Assembly: GCA_963743635.1 (NCBI GenBank)
Contig: CAVUQO010000003.1
Coordinates: forward strand, 448,001-512,000
Origin: Candidatus Babeliales bacterium
GTDB lineage: Bacteria; Babelota; Babeliae; Babelales; Vermiphilaceae
DNA: 64,000 bases
Direction: 5' to 3'
The number at the start of each line of letters is the position of its first letter. Within the stretch, counting starts at the first letter, position 1. The translations under genes and the position numbers were made by a program. Shown piece by piece: positions 22,984-26,403 of this stretch. The notes below the pieces were generated by a model. That model was not told where the DNA came from and ran no database searches. It saw only the letters and a list, made by a program, of their open reading frames with translations.

Positions 22984-23937
22984 CTAAAACAAATATATGA
23001 GCATAAGTGAAATAAGCAATGAGTAAATTGCGCAGGTATCAATGAGCCCTTGAGCAAATATGCTGACTTTGGAAAGTAGTTCATGCTGGTCGGGATTGAG
23101 TGCAATTTGTTCGCAGGCAGCAGAAGCGGTGATGCCCGAGCTTATGCCTGGTCCGAATGTTCCGAGGCCTGTAGAGAGCGCTGCAGCGAGTAATGCAATA
23201 CTTTTCGCAAGAGCATGATCTGCGGGAAGTGGTGTGAGTAAAATGAGCATTGCAATGACAAGACTAAAAATGATCGGCGTTTCAATCATTGCTTCACTGA
23301 CTAACATAAATGAAAACAATTTATTATATGCTTCGCGATTGATACCAACGCCGCGACACGCTACTTTAGCAAATCGCGCAAGTCCAATGGCAGGTCCGAT
23401 GCTGCCAAGCCCAATGCATAATCCTGCGGCAATTAATTTTAAACTTTCTTCAAACGTCTGTATCGTAGCCGCTTGATTTATGATCATGACTGCAACGATA
23501 AATCCAAAGATGATGGGCGTTTGTAAGATTGATTGAGTAAGGAGCATGAAGCGCAATATCTTTTGGCTGAAGAAAGGCTGACGTGCAATAGCATAACATG
23601 CTTCACGTGTTGGTAATGCAGAAATGAGTCCGATTGTAAGGCTAGAAAAACAGACCGCAAGCATAACGCCGAGTTCCGCATAATAGCCATAAATAGATGC
23701 CGGTTGGCTACGCAATAAAATAATTGCGATTGCAACACCCATGATTGCGGCAGTTTCGATGAGTGCCATGCCAAGTATCGCAGCTTTTGAGATATCGTCT
23801 TGCGCGGCGGGTTGTTGGTTGATGGCATCCAGCGCAGCGCCGCTTGTCATCCCCTCGCCAATACCAACGCCAATAGAGCTGATACCAACTGTCAGAGCGA
23901 TGGTGCTATAGTGTATTAATTCACCCAGTTCTATCAT
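22984..23937 (-). CDS. atpE: ATP synthase F0 subunit c, four fused hairpins
   Basis: Four Gly-rich helix/loop/helix repeats; ion-site residues E61, Q139, E219, D300; directly downstream of atpB. Confidence 0.9.
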   Translation of the reverse strand: MIELGELIHYSTIALTVGISSIGVGIGEGMTSGAALDAINQQPAAQDDISKAAILGMALIETAAIMGVAIAIILLRSQPASIYGYYAELGVMLAVCFSSLTIGLISALPTREACYAIARQPFFSQKILRFMLLTQSILQTPIIFGFIVAVMIINQAATIQTFEESLKLIAAGLCIGLGSIGPAIGLARFAKVACRGVGINREAYNKLFSFMLVSEAMIETPIIFSLVIAMLILLTPLPADHALAKSIALLAAALSTGLGTFGPGISSGITASAACEQIALNPDQHELLSKVSIFAQGLIDTCAIYSLLISLMLIYLF

Positions 23938-24674
23938 TATGATATTCCTTTTGGCTCGTGTTGAGTGGCAATGGCAAGATACGTAATCGTTAACATGGTA
24001 AATACAAATGCTTGTAAGAAACCTTCAAATAACCCAAAAAAAAGATATATCACCATATTGACTGAGCAAAGACCAATGAGTTGATAAATCCATGAACCGC
24101 TGATTGCATTGAAATATATTGATGAAATGGTGAAGCCGCCATAAATATTACCAAAAAGTCGAAACGCAATTGAGACGATTGTGGCGAGTTTGCCGACGAC
24201 GTGGAGCGGGAACATGAGAAAGAATGGTTCACAAAATTCTTTGAGATATTCCTTAATGCCGTGCGTTTTTATTGCGTAAAATTGTGTGTAGATAAATGCG
24301 ATAATGCCGAGCGCAAGCGTAGTATTTAAATCTTTCGTTGGTTCTTCAATCCAGGGGATGAGTGAGGCGATATTGCAAAAGAAGATAAAGCAAAAAAGGC
24401 TCGTAATAAAATTAAAATGGATTGAGGCGAGATGCCCGAGCGCTTGGTGGGTAAGATCCATAAAAGAAATGATGAATGAAGCAAGCAGATGGCGCAGAAC
24501 ACTTCTTTTCTGAGATAAAATATATTTGATGGGGAGTGAAAGCACAACCAAAAGTATGATTACAATCCATGTATCGAGGATTGTGTGGGCATTAAGAGAC
24601 CAAAATGGATTCGTAAATCCATAGGCCAATAGAGGCTGCCATTGATTATCACTCAGAGCGTGCGCTTCTGTCAT
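23937..24674 (-). CDS. atpB: ATP synthase F0 subunit a
   Basis: PTKDLNTTLAL, FRLFGNI (essential Arg), LQAFVFTML. Confidence 0.95.
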   Translation of the reverse strand: MTEAHALSDNQWQPLLAYGFTNPFWSLNAHTILDTWIVIILLVVLSLPIKYILSQKRSVLRHLLASFIISFMDLTHQALGHLASIHFNFITSLFCFIFFCNIASLIPWIEEPTKDLNTTLALGIIAFIYTQFYAIKTHGIKEYLKEFCEPFFLMFPLHVVGKLATIVSIAFRLFGNIYGGFTISSIYFNAISGSWIYQLIGLCSVNMVIYLFFGLFEGFLQAFVFTMLTITYLAIATQHEPKGIS

Positions 24675-24975
24675 ATGGTTTGGCCTTATCCTTAAGTATT
24701 ACCAGCCAAAAGGCTGTTAAAAATGATACCAAAACCAGTATAAGATGAATTGATGGGGATCGCAATAAGAAGAAAAAGAGTGTGAGCAAAGTTATGATGC
24801 GCATGAAAGAATACGAAAATGAGGAGTAGGGGTTGCGCTTAATGAGTGGCTGTCCGGCAGGATTTGATTCAGAAGAAAGGACTCTTTTCTTGCAATGAAA
24901 CAAGAAAAAGAGTCCATATATAATTCCAAGACCAAAACCGGCAGCCAACGAAAGCGCGACGGTATAGAGTTCCAT
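24649..24975 (-). CDS. AtpR/AtpI-like small membrane protein
   Basis: Small hydrophobic protein (AGFGLGIIYG) immediately upstream of atpB. Confidence 0.6.
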   Translation of the reverse strand: MELYTVALSLAAGFGLGIIYGLFFLFHCKKRVLSSESNPAGQPLIKRNPYSSFSYSFMRIITLLTLFFFLLRSPSIHLILVLVSFLTAFWLVILKDKAKPYDRSARSE

Positions 24976-24984
24976 TACAGTATG

Positions 24985-26403
24985 TTAGAACTTCTTAAGG
25001 CCTTTGTGGCGCCAGAATTCAGTAACAATGCCGGTTGAACCAGTAACAACGACTAAGCCGTTACGTTCATCGACTGTTTTCTGAGCAGCTTCAAATGCTT
25101 CTTTGAAGTTTGCGCACGCCTTAGCTTTTATTTTCATGCTCTTAATTTCATTCGTTACTTTTTCAACATCCCATGATGGGGCATCAACGTGACCTGGAAT
25201 TGATGCAACGGGGCATACAAATACTTGGCCAGAAGTCTTTTTGAAGAAGTAGCGTAGAAGCTTAAGGAATTCAGCAACATTTAATTCAGGATTATTACAT
25301 CCGACAATGAGCGTGAGTCCTTTCAGCGGTCGTTGATAATGTAAGAGACGAATACCAAGCAACAGATTCTTAAATGCGTCGAGATTGTCGGCGCTATCAA
25401 TTAAGAGGCTTGGCTTTTCTTTTTCTAGTAATTGAAAGCGTCCTGCAATAGTGCATTCGCTATCTTTCCAGAATTGATCAATAGTTTTCTTAGGATTCAG
25501 TTCTGATTGACGTTTTGCTTCTAGAGTAGGGCGACCACGTTGACCTTTTTTCTTGGTTAACAAGGTACCACTTACTACGATTGCATCTTTATCAGTAAAT
25601 GAATTGACATAAATAGAGGCGATGCGTTCAGCAAGTGCTGCGCAACGTCCATGAAGTTGTTCAAAAGGATATGCAAGCGGTGAAAGCTTACGAATTGGCA
25701 TTGCCCAGATACCTTTTTTAGCTTCGACCATTTCAAGCATTGTTTGTAAGTTTAATTTGCTTTGGTCAGCAGAAACAAGGTGAGTTCCAGGTTTGACAAT
25801 AGAAACCATTTGTTGGATAAAATCTTTTATTTCTTCAGCATTCGCATCGACATTGTCTGGCGTAACGCGTGTGATAGCGGCAACTTTTGGTGAACAAATA
25901 TGGGTTGCCATGTGTAGGCCGGTGTTATCAACTTCTAGAATTGCAACATCAAAATTTTGTTCTTTAAAATAAAGGAGCGCCATCATAACCAATACATCAT
26001 GAGATGTTGGTTTGAGAGCAAGTGAATCGGCAGTGTTTAATACTTCATTACCAAGTTCGGTGAATGATTTATTGGAGATGATCTCGCCATTGCCAGTAAT
26101 AAGTTCATTGTAGGTCAGTATGTGTGGTTCTTGGAATGTACCAACGGTAAGACCTTCTTCTCTCAGCAATTTTGCTGCGAAATGTATTGTTAACGATTTG
26201 CCGTTAGTACCTGTTACCAAAATGGTATTAAGCTTATCAGCGACGTTATTGAACGCAGCATTAAGTTTTTTAATGCACGTAAGCTGCTTATCACCCTTTT
26301 TTACGTTCCAATGGCTATCCAGGAACTCAACGATTTCGTTGTAATTACGCTGCTTGCCAAGGGTAACCGGGCTTTTGTCAGACTGTTTAGTGATGTCTTT
26401 CAT
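24985..26403 (-). CDS. Divergent FolC / Mur-ligase-fold protein
   Basis: VTGTNGKS P-loop, EPHI, AILEV, GRFQ, VVTGS; several FolC motifs are degenerate. Confidence 0.75.
   Translation of the reverse strand: MKDITKQSDKSPVTLGKQRNYNEIVEFLDSHWNVKKGDKQLTCIKKLNAAFNNVADKLNTILVTGTNGKSLTIHFAAKLLREEGLTVGTFQEPHILTYNELITGNGEIISNKSFTELGNEVLNTADSLALKPTSHDVLVMMALLYFKEQNFDVAILEVDNTGLHMATHICSPKVAAITRVTPDNVDANAEEIKDFIQQMVSIVKPGTHLVSADQSKLNLQTMLEMVEAKKGIWAMPIRKLSPLAYPFEQLHGRCAALAERIASIYVNSFTDKDAIVVSGTLLTKKKGQRGRPTLEAKRQSELNPKKTIDQFWKDSECTIAGRFQLLEKEKPSLLIDSADNLDAFKNLLLGIRLLHYQRPLKGLTLIVGCNNPELNVAEFLKLLRYFFKKTSGQVFVCPVASIPGHVDAPSWDVEKVTNEIKSMKIKAKACANFKEAFEAAQKTVDERNGLVVVTGSTGIVTEFWRHKGLKKF

Follow-up and report, generated by a model that had tools for sequence, protein, structure and literature searches.

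What kind of rotor is built from a c subunit that carries four hairpins in one polypeptide, and to which enzyme does it belong? The question is raised by a locus in a stretch of 64,000 nucleotides from a Candidatus Babeliales bacterium (the whole stretch analysed, hereafter the window), in which atpE(4) (22984..23937, minus strand) encodes an F-type c subunit of 317 aa with four hairpins and eight transmembrane helices. A sequence-only reading of this DNA had assigned the gene to an N-ATPase-like operon and had proposed a ring restricted to multiples of four hairpins, with at most three of every four ion sites active, as suits an energy parasite. The Pfam profile search identified four PF00137 stretches in the protein (E 4e-38), and each hairpin alone exceeded the Pfam cut-off (44.2, 26.8, 47.1 and 47.1 bits), which bears out the claim that the repeats are c subunits. 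The residues reported then were also correct, namely E61, Q139, E219 (with the additional E215) and D300 at the four ion sites, as well as GIGEG at 25-29 (including E28) and QQP at 41-43 of hairpin 1. Hairpin 1 (residues 2-76; 23710..23934, minus strand) carries E28 and E61-T62, the carboxylate side of a Na+ site, and never the Tyr. Hairpin 2 (residues 82-156; 23470..23694, minus strand) contains S106, P109, Q139-T-P and F144, the carboxylate being absent in the clade of the source genome. Hairpin 3 (residues 162-234; 23236..23454, minus strand), with L186, E219-T-P and F224, has a conserved acid without the other Na+ ligands, and hairpin 4 (residues 242-315; 22993..23214, minus strand), with S267, D300-T-C and Y305, keeps the Thr/Tyr side of the site. 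The AlphaFold model, built on a 115-sequence alignment, comprised eight long helices (pLDDT 97.8). The hairpins are only 20-33% identical to one another, which indicates that the four-hairpin fusion is old. The best natural match in the fold search was c1 of Acetobacterium woodii (4bem_J; rmsd 1.5-1.6 over 156-158 residues), again the top match in a sequence search against the PDB; helical-repeat designs were also matched in the fold search, a generic resemblance.

The start of atpE(4) is overlapped by the stop of atpB (23937..24674, minus strand; subunit a, 245 aa, PF00119), the sole subunit a gene of the genome. Upstream of atpB lies a gene for a small membrane protein (24649..24975, minus strand) that is AtpI-like, AtpR being possible; its AtpI match (E 0.005) is under the cut-off. 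Among 40 Babelota copies of this upstream protein, 13 matched PF03899 (AtpI) and one matched PF12966 (AtpR), all under the cut-off. Babelota subunit a has R172 and N176 in 94/94 copies and Q221 in 93/94. No further ATP synthase gene adjoins the trio, in agreement with the earlier statement that only these three genes are present; the rest of the enzyme is encoded elsewhere in the genome. A FolC-like Mur-ligase gene (window 24985-26403, minus strand; under the TIGR01499 cut-off) was also observed, and such a gene lies directly upstream of atpI-like/atpB in most loci of the three-acid clade described below, none having been seen there in the four-acid clade.

The source genome (Babelota/TM6; 85% complete) encodes the complete canonical F1Fo set (a, b, c, alpha, beta, gamma, delta and epsilon), distributed over four clusters, I-a-c4, c1-b'-b-delta-alpha, gamma and beta-epsilon, with one copy each of a, alpha, beta, gamma and epsilon, plus a single c. 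The check for another atpE, advised by the sequence-only reading, was positive: a second, single-hairpin atpE is located at C2:143965, where it heads the atpE-b'-b-delta-alpha cluster. The possibility that such a gene forms the ring had been foreseen as well; the gene exists, and its product probably takes part in the ring. The b, delta and alpha genes of this cluster are broken by frameshifts, and the indels do not appear in the short-read contigs from two runs, which come from two studies (one possibly of the source sample) and whose contigs also hold the window stretch. Relative to these contigs, the region (L048:5700-9300, contig C2 of G000) contains assembly indels together with 2-4% substitutions, so that single residues of the source-genome single c are uncertain, and the breaks on this contig, being assembly indels, are not to be taken as pseudogenes. 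True decay of b, delta and alpha was rejected, as the indels are missing in two runs and alpha is intact in 17 of the 18 relative loci that reach it.

The assignment to N-ATPases did not survive the inspection of these partner genes. The beta subunit scored 689 bits on TIGR01039 (cut-off 463) versus 541 on the N-type model TIGR03305 (cut-off 752), and gamma 176 on the F-type versus 82 on the N-type model, the N-clade grouping being judged for both by profile score alone; alpha also scored better on the F-type model. Delta was recognised by PF00213 at 22.6 bits (cut-off 22.3), and in the loci of relatives an ORF of 180-220 aa occupies the place of delta between b and alpha. V-type subunit I was not found in the source genome, and the F-type enzyme is the only rotary ATPase found in this genome at 85% completeness. 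Since beta is canonical and delta is present, the enzyme is not an N-ATPase; the single subunit a and the split operon led to the same rejection, and neither the atpDCQRBEFAG order nor a second ATPase was found. The pair E28 and E61 is reminiscent of the two Glu residues in N-ATPase c (PMC2881411, partial text), and one of the 40 upstream proteins weakly matches AtpR. Position 28, however, is Glu in the source genome and Gln in 51/94 fused proteins, and the F-type c of Fusobacterium also has two Glu (PMC3692424, partial text). We consider it scarcely credible that the three window genes encode an N-ATPase Fo. The claim that hairpin 1 is of Na+ type was sustained in one part, the E..E/T half-site being present, and contradicted by beta and delta in the other, the kinship with N-ATPases.

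The four-hairpin c subunit is real and conserved across the phylum Babelota. With the fused protein as the query, 259 of 261 phylum genomes gave a match, and 249 of them gave at least two (counted by eye from the match table). The exceptions were five genomes with a weak match to the single c only, two with none (53-78% complete) and five with the fused gene only. A true loss of the single c in the last five is unsupported, as the C-terminal domain of alpha is also missing from four of them, and in the fifth alpha is close to where a contig begins. From chosen subsets of the 261 genomes, the fused gene was extracted in 83, the single c in 99 and both in 80; the survey of AtpE suggested earlier revealed two c genes in most genomes of the phylum. 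Of 81 genomes, 80 contain one gene for subunit a; in the other, this gene is split. Among full-length relatives in named genomes, 12 of 17 titles read Babeliales, Dependentiae or TM6, the others merely bacterium or Pseudomonadota. In every fused-gene locus read, subunit a is just upstream, and two clusters recur, [I-a-c4] and [c1-b'-b-delta-alpha], the two c genes being adjacent in no locus read.

The presence of a canonical single-hairpin atpE in the source genome and across the phylum speaks against a ring in multiples of four. A rotor of fused copies only (8, 12 or 16 hairpins), with three of four sites active and tuned for pumping, would be in keeping with the translational coupling of the fused gene to atpB in every locus read, and hairpin 4 of one copy (T/Y) would be complementary to hairpin 1 of another (Q/E, E). 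Such a ring, however, leaves unexplained a single c that has Glu in 99/99 sequences and has been retained as the first gene before b'-b-delta-alpha; moreover, one clade has four acids, and relatives with one acid in 4-6 hairpins always have a single c downstream where the contig allows (best 80 of 266 loci). We therefore regard this ring as improbable.

The ligands T67 and Y70 of a Na+ site come from the neighbouring hairpin, as does S66. In the published site, one hairpin contributes Q/E32 and E65 and its neighbour S66, and T67 and Y70 are ligands as well (PMC3692424, partial text). A strict Na+ motif has been defined as Q/E in helix 1 together with E[STQ][STQ]xxY, and in double hairpins Glu pairs with S/T and Y of the preceding hairpin (both from the partial text of bioRxiv 10.64898/2026.10.01.756066). 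Over 94 distinct Babelota fused sequences, hairpin 1 has E/D in 94/94 and Q/E at helix-1 position 28 in 75/94; the residues found at its position +5 are L, I, M, F and V, with Tyr in 0/94. The ion-site residue of hairpin 2 is Q in 59/94 and E in 29/94; hairpin 3 has E in 89/94, P(+2) in 91/94 and F(+5) in 88/94; and hairpin 4 has D in 50/94 or E in 41/94, Y in 88/94 and mostly Ser in helix 1. An acid is not conserved at position 215, where Q occurs in 46/94 and E in 33/94, and on these counts E215 was rejected as a second functional acid. According to the state of hairpin 2, the phylum falls, with one exception, into two clades, one with four acids and one with three, the latter including the source genome. 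Among 99 single c sequences, Q occurs in 90, E in 99, S/T in 94 and Y in 85, and the strict Na+ motif is present in 59; the single c of the source genome has F instead of Y, in the region prone to assembly error. No lone hairpin of the fused protein contains the strict motif, the halves of which are supplied by its two ends. With E and the helix-1 Q/E in hairpin 1 and Y in hairpin 4, these ends thus keep complementary half-sites, the direction of pairing between hairpins being read from the sequences as the likely one.

The ligands of the two c genes have in part changed together. Among the five genomes in which the Tyr of hairpin 4 is replaced by Phe, four have a non-Tyr single c, versus 8/74 of the others, and in one subclade the helix-1 Gln was lost in both the fused gene and the single c. 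These co-changes amount to just two or three independent events, and they suggest shared selection on the two subunits. The Q/E of hairpin 1 was lost without a change in the single c in 12 genomes. Such observations bear on a model of two alternative rotors for one stator and one F1, a single-c ring and a fused (or fused-rich) ring, swapped by life stage to alter the ion/ATP ratio or the type of ion. No Babelota locus read has the two c genes in the same cluster, so they would be separately regulable; furthermore, the hairpin 4-to-hairpin 1 junction of two fused copies completes a site and the single c is self-complementary on paper, so that separate rings are possible. In contrast, the co-changes point to shared selection, the two c genes of the relatives described below are adjacent and sometimes fused in type, and the A. 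woodii ring is fixed at 9+1 (PMC9171764, partial text). Rotor swapping is, in our judgement, rather unlikely.

The inner helix of hairpin 2 has lost much of its Gly pattern, while the RQP loop of the same hairpin is nearly invariant. The former would suit a fused protein that serves only as a transient template, nucleating a ring of single c or docking that ring onto subunit a. Its co-encoding with the AtpI-like protein and subunit a would fit the same role, as would its faster evolution (mean identity 43-58% per hairpin within clades versus 56% for the single c phylum-wide). However, an acid is retained in 94/94 copies at hairpin 1, 89/94 at hairpin 3 and 91/94 at hairpin 4, and such retention, like that of the RQP loop, would be expected if the protein rotates in contact with subunit a and F1. 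A template function consequently seems quite improbable.

The profile search also retrieved other multi-hairpin c proteins outside Babelota. A related F-type family comprises at least 2405 proteins (E <= 1e-20), with a length of 4-6 hairpins in the 120 members listed, and the nine rows labelled with a taxon read Deltaproteobacteria, Desulfobacterales, Desulfobacteraceae or Thermodesulfobacteriota, so that these relatives belong to Desulfobacterota where a taxon is named. Of 266 metagenome loci, the best 80 have the gene order a-c(n)-c(1)-b'-b. The single c is no more than about 500 nt away in 65 of these and farther in four; in the other 11, the contig runs out within 175 nt. The commonest pattern, found in 38 of 72 distinct multi-hairpin proteins, is E..ESA..F, S..QTP..F, G..QTP..F, N..QST..Y; 18 of the 72 terminate in an E..EST..Y hairpin of the single-c type, in 16 cases directly behind a Q..Y hairpin. 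In most of the 80 loci (L237-L316), no F1 genes follow the a-c(n)-c(1)-b'-b module, which is possibly a second, Na+-type Fo using the shared F1 of the cell; in locus L244 the module runs on through alpha, gamma and beta. A second Fo set has been noted in Desulfococcus oleovorans, with the hairpins unmentioned (PMC4154653). Two c subunits also returned by the search, P0164 (968 aa) and P0264 (524 aa), contain numerous similar hairpins that are mostly of the ESAAIY type, the cluster of P0264 being labelled Gracilibacteria; in P0164, W at expected G positions suggested a misread genetic code. P0244 (1139 aa) is a very long multi-hairpin A-type c with Asgard labels (Promethearchaeota, Hodarchaeota).

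The Babelota proteins and the 4- to 6-hairpin relatives align in register from hairpin 1 (hhalign, 32% identity). The set S, P, Q, P, F of hairpin 2 occurs in 46-50 of 53 sequences in the clade of the source genome and in 59-64 of 64 relatives, and the four-acid clade is without that Pro. In the hairpin tree, Babelota hairpins 2 and 3 are sisters (97) and join the inner hairpins of the relatives with a support of only 43; a common origin is likely, short of proof. The trees rooted on the relatives disagree as to whether the Glu of hairpin 2 was lost or regained: one nests the Q clade inside the E group, and after removal of the trait columns the root falls between the Q clade and the E group (support 66). 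The two Babelota clusters correspond to the relatives' operon cut between its two c genes.

Based on the genes and residues compared here, the fused AtpE is probably the multi-hairpin partner of a hybrid F-type rotor, which would form one ring with several single c subunits in an ATP-driven pump. We infer co-assembly together with the pairing direction, ion identity, ring size and direction of operation. One or a few four-hairpin copies would share the ring with several separately encoded single c subunits, in an arrangement modelled on A. woodii c1 with c2/c3. Each ion site would be formed by Q/E and E of one hairpin and S/T and Y of the preceding one. Hairpin 1 keeps the first half-site and hairpin 4 the second, so that both junctions between fused and single subunits could form Na+-type sites. 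Inside the fused protein, the site of hairpin 2 would be acid-free in the source clade, and those of hairpins 3 and 4 would offer an acid but no further Na+ ligands. The simplest account would be a mixed ring served by a single stator and a single F1, with host ATP driving the only rotary ATPase of the cell as a pump. The hybrid ring is supported by the Babelota clusters, which when joined reproduce the a-c(4/5/6)-c(1)-b'-b order of the relatives, and by the polarity of the ends of the fused protein, which is that of A. woodii c1 (h1 E..F, h2 Q..Y); counting against it are the c genes that are never adjacent in Babelota and the 12 genomes in which hairpin 1 changed alone. The fused subunit is thus probably a hybrid-rotor variant, and an all-fused ring is improbable. 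Under the assumption of an 11-hairpin ring as in A. woodii, where nine single and one double subunit are fixed (PMC9171764, partial text), and of one fused copy, the source-genome ring would have 10 acids and move 3.3 ions per ATP versus 3.7, and the four-acid clade would lose none. More tentatively, and with considerable doubt, one ring might pump both Na+, at the single-c and fused-end sites, and H+, at the inner acid-only sites, the inner acids perhaps having been regained from dead Gln sites. The idea of a regain stems from the S, P, Q, P, F set shared by hairpin 2 of the source clade with one-acid relatives and from the lack of that Pro in the four-acid clade.

The C-terminal helices of epsilon have an inhibitory role. 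In Babelota, the open frame around each of the 60 epsilon matches among 61 genomes measures 79-123 aa, which leaves no room for the usual C-terminal helices; in the source genome (G000:C3:27381-27626; L049:7382-7627) and 59 other Babelota genomes, epsilon consists of the N-terminal beta-sandwich only. Four TLC-family ATP/ADP translocase matches were found in the source genome, as the sequence-only reading had advised looking for, and none for COX1, complex I/Mrp antiporter or Rnf/Nqr at 85% completeness. ATP-driven pumping is the likely direction in view of the translocases, the lack of respiratory-pump matches in this search and the short epsilon, which upholds the earlier proposal on this point. 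Reverse running of the Babelota ATPase has already been proposed (PMC4776705, PMC6561590; partial texts). The reduced number of sites does not force hydrolysis, since rotors with fewer sites still synthesise ATP, at about 90 mV (PMC9171764, partial text). The three-of-four pattern also loses its appeal as a parasite adaptation because a four-acid clade exists (hairpin 2 with E in 29/94) and free-living relatives keep fewer acids. The source genome also encodes a membrane pyrophosphatase (G000:C3:312549-314582; L190:1462-3495) whose K+ position is occupied by Ala and position 6.53 by Glu, a pattern that fits Na+ or Na+/H+ pumps and also one H+ subfamily (PMC6882861, partial text). The Babelota pyrophosphatase is named a proton pump in the literature; its residues are also compatible with Na+ or Na+/H+ pumping.

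The fused c was undescribed in the texts covered by our literature search, among them the available portions of PMC7594442, PMC7911925 and PMC2881411; the hybrid-rotor review of Brandt and Muller 2015, Matthies 2014 and the supplements (Table S5, PMC4776705) lie outside that search and may list such proteins. The accessible text of the Babelota papers (PMC4776705, PMC6561590, PMC12172432) mentions the enzyme generally or not at all, and Babel, Dependentiae and TM6 do not occur in the 2026 ATPase evolution preprint. The make-up of the ring sets the number of ions moved per ATP. In the literature examined, partly as incomplete texts, the described bacterial F-type hybrid is the two-hairpin subunit of acetogens; the Babelota, intracellular bacteria of protists, retain a four-hairpin partner throughout their phylum. 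The natural variants differ in hairpin number and have one, three or four acids, a series that would allow tests of the tolerance for dead sites, of mixed-ring stoichiometry and of two ions in one ring.

Among known systems, the fused c subunits of V/A-type enzymes (E. hirae K, eukaryotic c/c'', the 13-hairpin c of Methanopyrus) share with the Babelota protein fused hairpins, lost ion sites and the fold (Z 12.9-13.9). They differ from it in that the Babelota protein has an F-type sequence and F-type partners (a, b', b, delta, gamma, epsilon), V-type subunit I not having been found. Like N-ATPases, the source-genome protein has a Glu in the first helix of hairpin 1 and a probable pumping direction; unlike them, the Babelota enzyme has delta, two b subunits, a canonical beta and a split operon and is the sole ATPase, with one subunit a in 80/81 genomes instead of a second copy beside a typical enzyme. 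The 4- to 6-hairpin relatives are similar in their E..F hairpin 1, the S/P/Q-T-P/F inner hairpins, the Tyr of the last hairpin, the adjoining atpB and the S..RLFGN..G pattern common to both subunits a. They usually have one acid, a single c directly downstream and mostly no F1 genes after it, in contrast to the three or four acids of Babelota. The best match in both sequence and natural structure is c1 (AtpE1; PDB 4BEM chain J) of the F/V-hybrid Na+ rotor of Acetobacterium woodii/Clostridium aceticum, encoded in the order atpI-B-E1-E2 (PMC7911925, partial text). Both systems combine fused F-type hairpins with a separately encoded single-hairpin c, and the first hairpin has E without Tyr and the last has Tyr, as in c1 (h1 ETSGIF, h2 QTTGIY). 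The Babelota protein differs from c1 in having four hairpins instead of two, inner hairpins with T-P at +1/+2, and D/E in the last hairpin where c1 has Q. The two c genes of Babelota are also found in separate clusters, and the protein occurs throughout a phylum whose members are intracellular. The defining feature of the A. woodii-type hybrid rotor, multi- and single-hairpin c subunits encoded for one enzyme, is thus found in Babelota, while the adjacency of the two c genes is absent there and present in the 4- to 6-hairpin relatives.
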